49,779 nucleotides of DNA from Nitrospinota bacterium (GTDB taxonomy: Bacteria > UBA8248). Position numbers: made by a program. Below are positions 9,001-15,000 of the stretch, in pieces (within the stretch, counting starts at the first letter, position 1; every line of letters starts with the position of its first letter). Where the stretch lies: NCBI GenBank assembly GCA_030754595.1, contig JASLZZ010000122.1:1-49779 (forward strand), read 5' to 3'.

Positions 9001-12000
9001 TTGAACGGGTAATTTCCGGTGAAGAAATCCAAGGCAAGCCAAACAATAATTACCTTGAAAGAATAGGAGCGACGCAAGGAGTTTGTCGGTTTCACCGACG
9101 AAGATGTGCAACTGCTTATGGAGTATAACCAAATCGCGGAAGTCCACGCGAACGAGGTTGTGGAAAAGTTGTATCAGCACTTCCTGCGATTTGAGGAAAC
9201 AAAAGCCTTCTTCCGGGACGACATGACGCTCCTCCGTGTTACGGACCTTCAGAAAGAGTACTTCCTCGGGCTAACGAAAGGCGACTATGGCGAAGAATAT
9301 TTGGCGAACCGCCTGCGCATTGGAATCCTCCATCAGCAACTTGGCTTGTCGCCCTGCTGGTATATGGGGTCGTATTCGATTTATTTGGAGTTGGTCATTT
9401 CCTTCGTACTGGCAGCTTATGGATCTGACCTTGAGAAAGCGCGGCGAACTCTGGTGGCTTTAGTCAAGATCATCCAGTTGGACCAAGAATTGGCAATGAC
9501 GGCTTATTTATTGTCCCCACTCCCGTAATATTCCTGTTCAAATGGTTTATCAGGCATAAACCAATTCAAGGAATCAAATGGGAAATGTCGGATAGTTTTA
9601 TCGGCGTGGGCCGAATCAGGATGAAACCAGCGGGCCGCCGTACAGGCGGTGCTCGACCATGATTCAAAGATCCATGACGACCTTGAGGCCCGCCCGCTCG
9701 GCGCGGGCCGCGGCTTCCTCGTCGATGACGCCTTTTTGGAGCCAGATCGCCCGCGCCCCGGCGGCGATGGCTTCGTCCACCACCCCGCTCACGAAACGAC
9801 TCCGCCGGAAAACGTTCACCATCTCGGGGGGCTCGGGCAGCGCGGAGAGCCGGGGATAGCACCGCTCGCCGAGGAGTTCATCGTGACCGGGATTGACGGG
9901 AACAATCTCGTAGCCCGCCTGTTGCATGTAGACGCTCACGTAATGGCTGGGCCGGTGTTCCTTGGGCGAGAGACCCACCACGGCGATGCGCCGGAACTCC
10001 CGGAGCACCTGCCGGACGGCCCCTGAATCCTGAAAATCGGCGCCGCTCATTCGCTTATTTCTGCCTCCGGGGTCCGGTGGTCGCTTACTTCCCACTCCCT
10101 CAAATGGTCCCGGAGCGATTCGGGGCTGTCGGCCGCGCCTAAAAACGCGGCCACGGCCTCCTCGTCGGTATCGTAGAGCGGATAGCACGACGCCGGGGCC
10201 GCCCCGCCGGGCAGGTGGACCACCGCGTCCACCATGAACCCCGGTATATTCGTCCGCTCGGGTTTGTCCTCGAAAAACTTCGTCTCGACGATGCGCTCGG
10301 CGGTGAGGATGACGCCCTCGGAGGCCCGGGAGAGGAGCACATCCTCGAACGGGCCGCCGTCGATCCGCGCATTGCCGGCCGCGTCGGCGTGCTGAACGTG
10401 GACCACCGCCCAGTCGGGCCGGATTTTGGGGATCATGTAAACGCTCTTCCCCGTGTAGGGGTCCTCGGCCTGGAGGAACCCCGAGCTCGCCGGGGTGTCC
10501 GAGCCGTCGAACCCCGAGACCGGCTGGCTCGGAAGCCCATAGGCCGAGGCGCGCAGGCCCGCGATCACGCTGTAGCAGGCGTGCTCCACCACCCGGATTT
10601 CCCCGCTCTCGACCCCGCGCCGGTAGGAGGGCGCCATGCCGAAGAGGTTTTCGTAGCCGATGTAGCCCGCCCGCACCTCGGCCACCGCCCCCGCCGCGCA
10701 GAGGAGATCGATCTCGTAGGCCCCCGCCGTTTTAATCATGATGAGATTCCGGCGGCCCTGACGCGCAAGCTCGCGGGCGAAGGCCGACGGGGTGCGCGAG
10801 AGCGAATTGCCGCCCAGCGCGATCATCTGACCGTCCCGGACGAGGCCGCCGGCCTCTGAGAGAGATATCAGCTTGCTCACATTTCCTCCTGTCGCGCCGG
10901 CCGGGCTAGCAGCCCAGGCTGGGCTAGCAACCCCGCCCAGTTAGCGCTCCACCCGGCGAAGCGCGGCGAACTCCGAGTAACGCACCCCCTCGGGATCGAT
11001 CTCGGCGAGGGCGGAGAGTTCATCCCCCGTAGGCGGGATTGTCACGGGTATTTCAGCACCCAAATCGAGCGGAAAACCCGTCCGCCCGGCCACCTCTTCC
11101 ACCGAAACGCCCGGATGAACGCTCCCCAGCTCAAGACCCTCATCGCGCATCTCCATCACGGCCAGCGGAGTGACCACCCGCGCCAGGTTGCCCGACTGGG
11201 TGACGAAATCCACCTTCTCGACAAAAGTGCGCCGGTCGTGCACCACCCGCCATATCACGATCCGCCGAGCCTGCTCCATGATGACCGACCCGCCCCCGCC
11301 TCCGGGCAGGCGAACCTTTGGGGCGGACGGCTCGCCGATGTAGCTCATGTTCACGCGGCCCGCCTTGTCGATCTGTGCGCCGCCCAGGTACATGAGATCG
11401 ACCCCGCCCCGCGCGAAAAGATCGTAGGCGTCGGCGTTCGAGAAGATCGCCGCCGCCCCCTGGCACAGTGCCGGATCGTTCGTGCTGAAGGGCAGCCGCT
11501 CGGGCCTCGGGTCCACAGAGCCGGCCACCTCGATGAGAACGCTCCCCGGCGCATGCAGCTTTTTTGCGAGAAAAATCGCCACCATCGGAAGCGGGGAGTT
11601 CACGCCGTGAAAGACGCGCTCGCCCTCGCGCAGCTCCCGGGCCAGGCAGACGGCCATTTGATCCGCCGCATCGCGCGCGGCCTGAATTTCGCTTTCCGTT
11701 TTCAAGGTCATTTGATCATACCTGTAGATACGTCTCGGCTTCGGCGAGATATTCGGCGAGACCGTCCGCCGTTCGGGAAACCTCCATGTAGCGGCGCATC
11801 CTCGCCTCGTCCACTCCGTAGGCCGGCGAGCAGCTGCAGGGCGCGGCCCCCCCCGGCGCATGAGCGACGGCGGCCACCAGGAAGCCGGGAATGGCCGTCA
11901 TCTCGGGCTCCTCTCTAAAGCGCTCGGCGGGCGCCAATTTCTCGGCGGTGACGATGACCCCCTTCGCCGCGCGCATCATTTCGATATCGAAATATCGCGG

Positions 12001-15000
12001 GCCGTAGATGCGCGCGTTCCCCTCCCCGTCGGCTTCGTGGACGTGGATGATAGCCCAGTCGGGACGGAGCGCGGGGATGGCGTACAGCGTTTCGCCGGTG
12101 TACGGGTCATCGATGGTTTGGATTCCGCTGCGCTCGGGGATATCGCTTCCCTTGAACCCGCGCAGGGGCTGGAAGGGGTTGCCGTAGGCTGCGGCCCGCA
12201 GCCCCGCGAGGATGCTCGCTCAGGCGTGCTCGGTCAGCCCGGCCAACCCCTTTTCGATGGACCGACGGTAGTTCGGGGCGAGGCCGTAGCTGGCCTCGAA
12301 GGTGACGATTCCGCTCAGGACCCGGCCCAGCGCCCCCGCCGCGCAAAGGAGGTCGGCGTCGTAGCCCGGAGAGGGTTTGATGAGGGTGAGATTCTTCCGT
12401 CCGGCGCGGGCCAGCTCGTGAAGAAGGGTCGAGGGCGCGCGGTGGAGCAGGCTTCCGCTCGTGGAGATGGCTTCCCCGTCCTTGATCAGTCCCGCGGCCT
12501 CGGCCACCGTGATTAATTTCATCATTTTCCTCTCCCGGTCAGGACGAATCTTCCTTATGGCAGGCCGCATGGTAGGCGAATCTCGCCGATATGTCAGGGC
12601 CGCTAGCTCAATCGGCGGTTCAACCGGCTAATAAACCCGCCGCACAACCGGCCACCGGTTCGGCGAAGGCCGGGGCCGGCTCCTCGCTGATGGCCCAACT
12701 CATCCCCGCCGCGACGAAACAGATCATGGCGGACGCCAGAAAAATCGGCTGATAGTTCCCCCAGAGGTCGTGAACGAGTCCTCCGGCATAGGCGCCCGCC
12801 GCCGAGCCAATCTGGTGGCTCAAAAAAACGAGGCCGAACACCGTGCCGCCCGAGCGGTTCCCGAAAAGAGTGGTCGAGAGAGCCGTGGTGGGGGGTACGG
12901 TCGCGAAATCCACCAGGCCGAAGGCCACCTCGAATACGAACAGCATCACCGGATCGCTGACGAACATGAGGAAAAAAAGCGATACCGCGCGCCCCACGTA
13001 AATCCAGCCCAAAAGCCTTTTGTGCCCCCAACGGTCCGAGATCGCTCCGGAGATGAGAGTCCCCAACGCGTTAAACGCCCCGAGCGTTCCGAAGGCCGTG
13101 GCGGCGGTGAAGGTGTCGATGTGAATTTCCTCGGCATAGGGAATCAGGTGCGTTTCGATGAGACCCGCCGTCGTGAACCCGCAAATCCCAAAACTGCCGA
13201 TGAGCCACCAGAAATTCACCTCCCGGGCGATCCGGGCAAGAGGATGCGGACGCCCCCCCTCCCCCTCGCGGGGTTGCTCCCCTCTCACCACCTCCGGCGG
13301 ATCGTCCCTGAAGAAAAGCAGGAATATAGGAACGGCGATGAACAGCACGGCCGCCCCGGACCAGAAGTAGGCCGTCCGCCAGCCGTAGCGTTCCATGAAC
13401 GCCGCGAAAGCGGGCAATAATATGAGCTGGCCGGCGGCTCCTCCGGCGGCGACTACGCCGACTGCGAACGCCCGGTTCCGGCTGAACCATCGGGAGATCG
13501 CCACCGCCGCGGTCACGTTGGCCGAGCCTCCGGCCGCCAGCAACAGCCCGCCCCCGAACACGAGGTAGACGTGCCAGAGACTCTGGATGAACCCCATCGC
13601 CACGGTGAATACGGCCATTAAAATAAAGCTGCCCACGAAAACCACCCGGGGGCCATAGATATCGGCCCAGCGCCCCGAAATCGCCCGGGCGAGGCCATTG
13701 CTCAGAAACCCGATGGACCCCACCAGGCTGATGGCCGCCCTGTCCCAGCCAAACTTCACCTCCCAAGGCCGTATCAGCAGGCCGAATGTGGAGCGAACCC
13801 CCATCGGAATGGCCATGGCGAGGAAGCAAAGCGCACGATCACCCAGGCGTAGGAACTTTCGCGCTCATCCGCTTGATTCATCATTCTTCCTTTACGGCCC
13901 GCGACTTTGCAGCCCGCAACTTTGAGAGTCTAAAGAGGAGCAGGAGTGATAAGAGGCCGCGCCTTGAGAGAGCCGGCCCGGCCATGAAAGTCAGTCGATC
14001 ACGGCGACGGCGTTGATCTCGATCAGGCAGCGCGGGTCGGTGGCGAGCCGGACCACCTGGACGGATGTCGTCGCCGGTTTGTTGTCCCCGAAATACTCCC
14101 CCCAAACGCGGTTGAGATCGTCCTGATCGGTCAGGTCGGTCTGATAGCGCGACACCGTGACCACATCATCGAACGTGGCGCCGACGGACTCGAGGCCATT
14201 CTTGAGGTTTTCGAGGGCGGCGCGCGACTGACCCGCCATGTCCGGGGGCATGGCGTCGAACTCCTCGGGGCGGTGCGGGTGGTGATGATAGACCGGCGCC
14301 GCCGTGACGCCCGCGAAATACACCGTCGTTCCCCCGGTGACCTTGATCGCCGGGGCGTAGGGCATCCACAGGTCCGGGGCGTCGGGCCAGTGGACGTGCT
14401 CGATCGACTTGGGCATGGGTCGTTCCCTCCTTAATGAATTCAAGCGAAATAATTCGCCACCATCATAATCGAAAATGAAGCCGAAGCCTCGTGGTCATTT
14501 CGGGGCAAAATGCTATGATTCGGGCTTCAATTCAAATCGCGTCAACGAAACGGACAAGGGATACGGATCATGGCCGGGGGAATTCTCGAAGGGAAAAAAG
14601 CTGTGGTCACGGGCGGTTCCTCGGGCATCGGGGCCTCAATCGCCGAGCGATTCGCCTCGGAGGGAGCCGACATCTGGATGGCCGGCGGCAGCAGCGCCGA
14701 GGGCCTTCAAAAATCAATCGACTCCTGCGCCGCCCACGGCGTAAAGGCGAGCGGGGCGCTCTACGATCTTTCCGACTCGAGGAACGCGGCCACCCTCGTG
14801 AAGGAGGGCGCGGAATACCACGGCGGGCTCGATATCTTGGTCAACTCGGCGGGCACGCGGAACCTGAGCGCCTTCGTCGATATCGAGGACGAAGCCATCG
14901 ATCTCCTCTTCGAGGTGAACGCCAAATCGGCGTTTTTCGCCTCGCGCGAGGCCGCCCGCATCATGGTCCCGCAGGGAAGCGGCCACATCCTGATGATAGG

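Follow-up and report, generated by a model that had tools for sequence, protein, structure and literature searches.

The question raised by this locus was whether two short reading frames separated by an in-frame TGA encode one protein with selenocysteine (Sec) at that codon. Within the window, the whole 49,779-nt stretch of Nitrospinota DNA that was analysed, gene callers cut a gene of 269 codons (11716..12525, minus strand) into pieces of 101 and 87 aa (g03080 and g03079), which the survey's finding had proposed to be a single CoA-transferase subunit A read through the TGA at codon 102. This proposal was borne out, as the read-through product formed one full Pfam CoA_trans domain across the TGA (PF01144; residues 6-222 on profile positions 3-216 of 217, E 2.2e-19). 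The internal UGA (12220..12222, minus strand; motif E-H-A-U) was assigned to Sec from alignments of orthologues, paralogues and homologues, together with the Sec machinery in the genome. A Shine-Dalgarno-like GGGAGAGG (12529..12536, minus strand) was seen upstream of an ATG-ATG start, and the gene ended at a terminal TGA (11718..11716, minus strand). Since TGA also terminates these same genes, the genetic code has not been reassigned. Public protein sets hold the gene as a 101-aa piece and a 150-171-aa piece, one fragment under the name 'hypothetical protein', and no NCBIfam model covers the alpha family, the only matches lying far under cut-off (37.1 bits vs. 128.5, and 28.2 vs. 315). The split gene as a single CoA_trans-family alpha subunit read through a Sec-encoding UGA was supported in every test run.

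A repeated six-frame search of 51 genomes of the phylum gave the same numbers as had been counted before: the 35 strongest matches, from 34 genomes in 5 genera and at 60-100% identity, had exactly one TGA each, and the weaker ones listed (≤53% identity) had none. The column of the TGA was shared by all 35 orthologues, extending an earlier count of six out of six loci, and Cys occupied that column in all 16 in-phylum paralogues. Among 120 database homologues, the 115 of at least 240 aa all had Cys there, while the remaining five were fragments of 150-167 aa (72-82% identity) starting past the TGA; both observations reproduced those made previously. The view that Sec replaces an invariant Cys therefore held within the close clade (115/115) but not in the wider family, where the column contained Glu in 60, Cys in 28, Asn in 19, Gly in 10, His in 7 and other residues in 15 of the 139 full-length rows found among the 150 best 50%-identity representatives, query included.

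Downstream of the TGA lies a SECIS-type hairpin, GGGCUGCG-GGC-CGCAGCCU (12186..12204, minus strand), with 8 bp including a basal G.U pair and a GGC loop, which was recognised by a synonymous freeze and kept pairing. The element, GGGCTGCG-GGC-CGCAGCCT, begins 15 nt past the last base of the TGA, i.e., 18 nt from its first base, and a conserved stem-loop close 3' of the UGA with a G in the apical loop, as expected of bacterial SECIS elements, is thus present here. It had been described as identical in six of six orthologues; in the wider set it was letter-identical in 30 of 35, and the other five still pair, with GCA>GCG (2) or GCC>GCT (3) turning a Watson-Crick pair into G.U. Synonymous entropy from +6 to +12 (7 codons) was 0.08, below that of every other of the gene's 50 windows (median 0.63) and beyond what chance would give; the corresponding codons of the Cys paralogues, in which the same peptide is coded freely, gave 0.84. 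Genomes with a GC content of only 36% retained the hairpin as well. Between it and the TGA, codons show synonymous variation while the peptide is conserved, so translation continues beyond the TGA. The folding energy of the hairpin region, a GC-rich stretch, was no better than that of shuffled sequences (z 0.04), and no Rfam family matched the region.

The genome itself encodes SelB (364.5 bits), SelA (551.8 bits), tRNA-Sec (73.6 bits) and SelD, all four over curated cut-offs, and its SelD carries a TGA of its own and a similar hairpin (GGGUCC-GGA-GGACCU). Across the phylum, 49 of 51 genomes had SelA. As a hint of expression, short RNA-library contigs read across the TGA without a single difference in 191 nt; such libraries can hold DNA.

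A TGA also stood in the Sec column at 47 of 52 related loci from outside the phylum, most of them in Burkholderiales MAGs. In this second clade the codons GGG CTG CGT GCA GCC after the TGA were invariant (47/47) with variable flanking codons, the 3' arm of the hairpin lay one codon earlier, and the loop contained G/U. An ATG immediately followed the TGA in 43 of the 47 loci. SelA was present in all five genomes tested, over the cut-off in four. The Sec form extends beyond this phylum, and two large groups of environmental bacteria carry the recoded gene.

Like known bacterial selenoproteins, the gene combines a Sec/Cys pair, a hairpin 3' of the UGA and dependence on SelA, SelB, SelD and tRNA-Sec; unlike them, it has no redox motif around Sec. 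The text and Table 1 of a 2026 review (PMC13188914), which count 119 selenoprotein families and subfamilies, contain no entry for PF01144 or a CoA-transferase, and neither do PMC9312934, the deep-Sep paper or the main text of BSepDB. Within these texts, the survey's statement that CoA-transferases lie outside the known selenoprotein families stood, and the CoA-transferase-fold alpha subunit is supported as a new selenoprotein.

The alpha model (pLDDT 97.3) had its best fold matches in IpdA, GctA and AibA, and Sec102 opened, in its first turn, a helix (residues 102-113) that follows a strand (96-99). The top structural match was IpdAB, the COCHEA-CoA ring-cleaving hydrolase of Mycobacterium tuberculosis and Rhodococcus jostii (PDB 6CON, 6CO6, 6CO9, 6COJ; TMq 0.90), which has the same two-subunit class I CoA-transferase fold. 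Sec102 aligned with IpdA Glu105, the residue mutated in 6COJ ('IpdAB E105A COCHEA-CoA complex'), and it is at this very column that an E>A change separates PDB chains 6co6_A and 6coj_A. We take Glu105 to be the catalytic residue of IpdA, and Sec102 probably occupies an active-site position. However, identity to IpdA was 29%, with Glu in place of the window's Sec/Cys, the steroid-catabolic gene context is absent at the window's locus, and the beta subunits matched weakly (E 7.6e-8). The beta subunit of IpdAB reportedly lacks the catalytic Glu.

By sequence, the best PDB match was AibA/AibB, the 3-methylglutaconyl-CoA decarboxylase of Myxococcus xanthus (PDB 5MZW-5N03; E 1.5e-31 and 7.3e-32 for the two subunits), a non-transferase on the CoA-transferase fold in which, according to the consulted sections of PMC7756340, Cys56 of AibB replaces the catalytic Glu of the Gct beta subunit. 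It differs at the Sec column, which is Gly in AibA (E-H-D-G), and at the position of AibB Cys56, which is Val in the beta subunit of the window; selenium is not involved in AibAB. The glutaconate CoA-transferase GctAB of Acidaminococcus fermentans (PDB 1POI) shares the fold and the two-subunit layout and lends its name to homologues in public annotations, but has 28% identity, Gln in the Sec column and its own beta catalytic Glu, absent at the window's locus. The earlier name 'GctA-like CoA-transferase' was adequate for the fold and not for GctA itself (28% identity to 1POI_A, no curated family match), and is probably a label of fold rather than of activity.

Gct enzymes carry a conserved catalytic Glu on the beta subunit (same sections of PMC7756340), and a caveat attached to the original observation had placed the catalytic Glu on subunit B here too. 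It does not apply, as the canonical position (the E of F-E-G-G at locus L077) is Val in the window's beta subunit (256 aa, PF01144; 10941..11711, minus strand) and Sec stands at the IpdA Glu105 site; the Val of the beta motif L-I-E-V-A-G-S also aligned gap-free with AibB Cys56. As in class I CoA-transferases of the alpha/beta type, the CoA_trans domain and fold were present in two adjacent subunits, while the catalytic E-x-G Glu of the beta subunit appears to be absent from its canonical position, as judged by alignment and not by coordinates, with the profile alignment to E. coli AtoA ambiguous in that loop. Nitrospinota-type beta subunits have an invariant Glu one residue before this position, present in each of the 32 loci aligned at that point, whereas Asn or Ser fills the site in every other Cys or Sec clade, the beta partners reading N-V-A-G-G in 27 distinct Burkholderiales-type TGA loci and N-I/V-P-G-G beside Cys paralogues. 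F-E-G-G occurs in a single in-phylum partner, whose alpha subunit carries His at the Sec column. The connection of the beta Glu with residue 102 of the alpha subunit comes from few independent lineages. Because Sec102 falls at the Glu105 site and the beta subunit lacks the canonical Glu, the enzyme is probably AibAB/IpdAB-like and not a classical CoA-transferase; both features are read from sequence, at 29-31% identity to solved members.

We therefore favor, with a probability of roughly 0.7, a genuine Sec-containing alpha subunit with AibAB/IpdAB-like chemistry run from Sec102. The ribosome would read UGA-102 as Sec via SelB and tRNA-Sec, guided by the hairpin, and the resulting 269-residue alpha subunit would pair with the beta subunit encoded next door. 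The heteromer would have the class I CoA-transferase fold of the AibAB/IpdAB-like branch and, with the canonical beta Glu gone, its chemistry would come from the alpha subunit, where Sec102 may act as a catalytic nucleophile or acid/base on the acyl part of an acyl-CoA. The substrate would probably be a carboxylated, beta-keto or unsaturated acyl-CoA, made by a distinct enzyme such as a ligase or a family III transferase. More tentatively, Sec102 (Cys in relatives) might mark a branch of the CoA-transferase superfamily not described before, in which it serves as catalytic nucleophile, the catalytic residue having moved from the beta Glu to the alpha subunit and the reaction on an acyl-CoA substrate passing through an acyl-selenoester/thioester or a Michael adduct.

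Gene neighbourhoods bear on the other roles that Sec102 could have. The beta gene followed the alpha gene in 34 of 35 loci, starting 4 nt past the alpha stop in the window, where it is followed by a Cys paralogue of the alpha subunit (A2, 277 aa, E-H-A-C; 10047..10880, minus strand), found at this place only in the window's genus, and by a CoA_binding_2 protein (128 aa, PF13380, E 1.9e-39; 9664..10050, minus strand), whose ATG start shares bases with the A2 stop (ATGA). At the other end, immediately 5' of the alpha gene and in the same orientation, an MFS transporter (12620..13816, minus strand), kept in three of five loci of the genus, is possibly the first gene of the operon there. The operon A-B-A2-CoA_binding first described was found in the window's genus (5 loci) but not in the other four genera, in which the module is a divergent CMD/AhpD-like gene and then A(Sec)-B-RraA-like. 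This CMD/AhpD-like gene encodes a C-E-F-C motif and adjoins the Sec gene divergently in 29 of 30 loci of the four genera, in line with a genuine selenoprotein whose Sec102 has a redox or regulatory role, forming a selenenylsulfide with a nearby Cys or the neighbouring CxxC protein, for example in a reductive step or as a redox switch on an enzyme of the CoA-transferase fold. A second widely conserved alpha Cys, in a P-x-S-C-x-P stretch, would fit such a role, as would the redox function of most known selenoproteins (PMC13188914, text and Table 1). We nevertheless consider it unlikely: a UxxC or CxxU motif is absent around Sec102, the CMD gene is not adjacent to the Sec gene in the window's genus or in Burkholderiales-type loci, and the column is Glu in IpdA (the mutated active-site residue) and in 60 of the 139 representatives, which argues for acid/base or nucleophilic chemistry.

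Less likely still is a true CoA-transferase, in which the Glu of L-I-E-V-A-G-S would carry CoA while Sec102 only assists, for example in substrate binding or leaving-group chemistry. Transferase activity is possible in the Nitrospinota-type clade because its invariant off-by-one beta Glu might carry CoA, and Pfam CoA_trans on both subunits and the CoA_binding_2 gene of the operon agree with it. Against this, that Glu is one residue off the canonical position and gives way to Asn or Ser in all other Cys and Sec clades, and relatives have separate CoA-activating enzymes beside them: a family III CoA-transferase occurs with enoyl-CoA hydratase, Zn-dehydrogenase and TctABC genes beside Burkholderiales-type genes, and in Xanthobacter an acyl-CoA ligase overlaps the Cys form. 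The two ORFs of public calls and the ATG directly past the TGA in the second clade might suggest a gene without selenium, in which the TGA either stops translation, leaving a pseudogene or a split gene with two products, or is decoded as Trp/Cys by a near-cognate tRNA. This is highly improbable given 19 conserved codons between the TGA and the called start of downstream fragments in the window's clade and one predicted fold across the TGA. Moreover, both clades, 82 loci in all, combine a single TGA at the Cys position with a frozen hairpin and Sec machinery, which is the pattern of Sec decoding.

With a genuine Sec-containing alpha subunit as the preferred reading, a whole enzyme is missing from annotation at no fewer than 82 loci, because the gene is split in public sets and no NCBIfam model exists for it. 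The codons of the peptide G-L-R-A-A can themselves form a hairpin (GGG CUG CGN GCA GCC), which the two clades use in two registers, making it a tidy case of a coding sequence predisposed to SECIS gain. Residue 102 is flagged as a functional residue of a large uncharacterised Cys clade. Sec at a probable active-site position of an acyl-CoA-processing fold would widen the use of selenium, catalogued selenoproteins being nearly all redox proteins. If Sec102 is the catalytic nucleophile, this would be a non-redox catalytic use of Sec, fixed at least twice in separate clades, the Nitrospinota-labelled marine MAGs and the Burkholderiales MAGs.

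The alpha-subunit gene, A(Sec), belonged to a real selenoprotein family of two clades, in which the recoding itself was ordinary. It was located on the minus strand at 12525..11716, with an ATG at 12525, a terminal TGA at 11718..11716, and the TGA at 12222..12220 (codon 102, E-H-A-U) as its sole interruption. As the survey had proposed, read-through gave a single CoA_trans domain within 269 residues (Pfam; residues 6-222 on positions 3-216 of the 217-position profile, E 2.2e-19), while the two NCBIfam matches to the subunit were both sub-threshold. Downstream on the same strand were the beta-subunit gene B (11711..10941; PF01144), which completes the textbook alpha/beta pair of the CoA-transferase fold, then A2, an alpha-subunit paralogue with Cys in the motif E-H-A-C (10880..10047), and a CoA_binding_2 gene (10050..9664); an MFS transporter gene (13816..12620, minus strand) was found upstream. 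Adjoining the operon, on the plus strand, 4857-8725 encoded hydantoinase/oxoprolinase A (709 aa) and B (580 aa), which a protoglobin-family gene of 140 aa (9106-9528, plus strand; PF11563, E 7e-30) separated from the CoA_binding_2 gene.

The operon A(Sec)-B-A2(Cys)-CoA_binding_2 described in the survey was retained in the window's genus (5 loci, preceded by MFS or RidA), but the other four genera with the Sec gene had different neighbours. In those genera, a divergently oriented CMD/AhpD-like gene, whose product has the motif C-E-F-C, was present at 29 of 30 loci and an RraA-like aldolase or decarboxylase gene followed B at 28 of 30, the few absences being explained by contig ends that cut the loci. 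The CMD/AhpD-like protein kept beside the Sec gene in these four genera (loci L029-L058) was 170 aa long; CMD-like proteins are a known selenoprotein family, and this neighbour has Cys in its C-E-F-C motif. The genome that contains the window encoded a CMD orthologue elsewhere, on its contig C103, and no RraA-like gene was found in it at E 1e-10. One genome of genus g3 encoded, just upstream of its CMD gene (L055:558-2714, plus strand), a DncV-like nucleotidyltransferase and a patatin-like phospholipase split into two ORFs, a pair that looks like a CBASS-type defence module.

The genome, in 138 contigs, possessed the machinery for selenocysteine insertion, with SelB (364.5 bits), SelA (551.8), SelD (345) and tRNA-Sec (73.6) all above curated cut-offs. 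A six-frame search of 51 genomes of the phylum returned 35 matches at 60-100% identity (34 genomes, 5 genera) with exactly one TGA each, and no TGA in any weaker match among those listed, which bore out the earlier count. The TGA was in the same column in 35/35 extracted orthologues, extending what had been seen in six aligned loci. This column held Cys in all 16 in-phylum paralogues and, in agreement with the survey's finding, in 115 of 115 database homologues of at least 240 residues; the other five of the 120 homologues were fragments of 150-167 residues that started after the TGA. Many of the 35 genes also terminated in TGA, so that the code was not reassigned. Within the phylum, the distribution of SelA was not discriminating for the Sec gene, because 49 of the 51 genomes have SelA. 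One genome (G030) held two Sec-gene copies on different contigs (L043 and L054) and, given its estimated contamination of 16%, these may represent two strains binned together.

A hairpin, GGGCUGCG-GGC-CGCAGCCU, was located at 12204..12186 (minus strand), starting 15 nt past the TGA. The survey had reported it as letter-for-letter identical in six of six orthologues; conservation was upheld across the 35 TGA genes, but identity was not complete, with GCA>GCG in two loci and GCC>GCT in three, each turning a Watson-Crick pair into G.U, and no other variants. The codons for G-L-R-A-A-A-Y were of 1, 1, 1, 2, 2, 1 and 2 types in the 35 TGA genes, compared with 4, 6, 6, 3, 3, 2 and 2 types for G-L-R-A-S/A-A-Y in the 16 Cys paralogues. 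Synonymous entropy in this 7-codon window was 0.08, the lowest of 50 windows in the gene (median 0.63), and 0.84 in the same window of the Cys paralogues. The GC-rich hairpin was retained even in one genus of only 36% GC. Between the TGA and the hairpin, codons varied synonymously while the peptide was conserved, indicating that those codons are translated. On the opposing side, folding energy was no better than that of shuffled sequences (z 0.04), a comparison that is uninformative in so GC-rich a gene, and an Rfam scan of 11900..12400 with E up to 10 gave no match beyond one chance sRNA hit. SelD of the same genome was itself a selenoprotein (C16:24543-25505, locus L011; G-G-U-G-S-K-L-G, TGA at 24570), and its hairpin, GGGUCC-GGA-GGACCU, 11 nt past the UGA, was similar to that of the alpha subunit.

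A scan of bacteria and archaea in which each species was represented by a single genome revealed 80 related loci. The close ones came from MAGs labeled by their depositors as Nitrospinota, Nitrospinaceae or 'Tectomicrobia'; MAGs with such labels correspond to GTDB phylum UBA8248 in the BSepDB paper. Fifty-two loci had less than 58% identity, and 47 of them carried a stop in the Sec column, in every case TGA, with Cys in the remaining five. This second clade consisted mostly of Burkholderiales or Betaproteobacteria MAGs, again by depositors' labels. A 15-nt spacer separated its TGA from GGG CTG CGT GCA GCC, which was invariant in 47/47 loci amid variable flanking codons. Compared with the window's hairpin, the 5' arm was shared, the 3' arm came one codon earlier, and G and U were in the loop; the five Cys forms lacked this hairpin. 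An ATG stood directly after the TGA in 43 of the 47 loci (L111, L113-L155, L157-L159), which explains why gene callers make a new start at this point and why 171-aa fragments with the N-terminus M-T-L-V-A-G-L-R are found in databases. SelA was encoded in all five second-clade genomes tested, four times above the cut-off and once in frameshifted pieces. The latter (genome G053, contig C8:70798-72148) comprised several pieces, one with a TGA, and the frameshifts are probably an assembly error in this long-read MAG.

In a FastTree phylogeny of 105 rows, which left out most near-duplicate loci of both Sec clades and gave SH-like supports only, support was 99 for a group made up of the 19 Sec rows of the window's own Nitrospinota-type clade and 97 for one of the 17 Burkholderiales-type Sec rows, the latter nested among Cys forms. 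Both belonged to a 55-row clade with good support, which also contained a third group, all Cys; the branching order of the three was not settled by FastTree. Two separate Sec groups imply two gains of Sec or, alternatively, several losses.

The nearest solved structures to the alpha subunit were AibA (E 1.5e-31), GctA and IpdA by sequence, and IpdA (TMq 0.90), GctA and AibA by fold, using a model with pLDDT 97.3. The residue in the Sec column is Gly in AibA, Gln in GctA and Glu in IpdA. The difference between the deposited IpdA chains 6co6_A and 6coj_A, E>A, fell precisely in this column and, as 6COJ is titled 'IpdAB E105A COCHEA-CoA complex', Sec102 lies at the position of IpdA Glu105. This Glu105 was reportedly described as the catalytic base by Crowe and colleagues in 2018. 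In the predicted structure, a strand (96-99) preceded a helix (102-113) of which Sec102 was the first residue, a place where reactive Cys and Sec are often found. The invariance of Cys noted in the survey applied to the 115 full-length database homologues but not to the wider family, where the column held E 60, C 28, N 19, G 10, H 7 and other residues 15 times (139 full-length rows among the best 150 family representatives). It is a specialized rather than structural position, and Sec102 probably occupies a catalytic position of a CoA-transferase-fold enzyme.

According to Sheng and Himo (PMC7756340), AibB carries Cys56 in place of the catalytic Glu that is conserved in Gct enzymes. An alignment of the window's B with AibB was gap-free at this site and put Cys56 on the Val of L-I-E-V-A-G-S, with the Glu one residue earlier; this Glu was invariant in the 32 clade beta genes aligned there. 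Profile alignment of beta subunits to E. coli AtoA (HMMER) placed the 'eng' of S-E-N-G in an insertion, with an ambiguous register in that loop. The motif was N-V-A-G-G in beta partners of Burkholderiales-type Sec genes (27 distinct loci), N-I/V-P-G-G in those of in-phylum Cys paralogues and S-V-G-G-G in that of Xanthobacter, while one in-phylum relative with canonical F-E-G-G in beta had His in the alpha column. Judged by alignment, the whole Cys/Sec clade lacks the canonical beta Glu, as does AibAB. A second beta-like gene (contig C13:1-7000 of the genome that contains the window, 47% identity, no alpha partner) was set aside because its third-position GC was much below that of the window's genes and the assembly had an estimated 6.43% contamination; C13 may be a contaminant.

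The stretch was present in 16 DNA runs, 12 of which are possibly its source. Four runs of RNA libraries from three studies each yielded a single short contig that was identical to part of the operon, including, in two runs of one sample, a 191-nt contig (12100..12290) spanning the TGA and hairpin; this is a hint only, because such libraries can hold DNA, and regions lacking coverage are uninformative. A literature search yielded no publication that connects selenocysteine to a CoA-transferase of this fold. The survey's view that CoA-transferases are not among known selenoprotein families agreed with the 119-family table of a 2026 review (PMC13188914), a 2022 review (PMC9312934), the deep-Sep paper and the BSepDB main text, in which a term search showed no CoA-transferase/PF01144 family; the BSepDB family table, two Haft papers and a groundwater-MAG study were outside this scope. 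A selenoprotein family of the CoA-transferase fold is thus apparently uncatalogued.

Two Burkholderiales-type loci lay among genes for a family III CoA-transferase, enoyl-CoA hydratase, Zn-dehydrogenase, Lyase_1 enzyme, 2-hydroxyacid dehydrogenase and TctABC, and in Xanthobacter an acyl-CoA ligase gene overlapped the start of the Cys form. Separate CoA-activating enzymes beside the pair fit an enzyme that uses an acyl-CoA instead of producing it, and the Cys/Sec enzyme is probably not a classical CoA-transferase.
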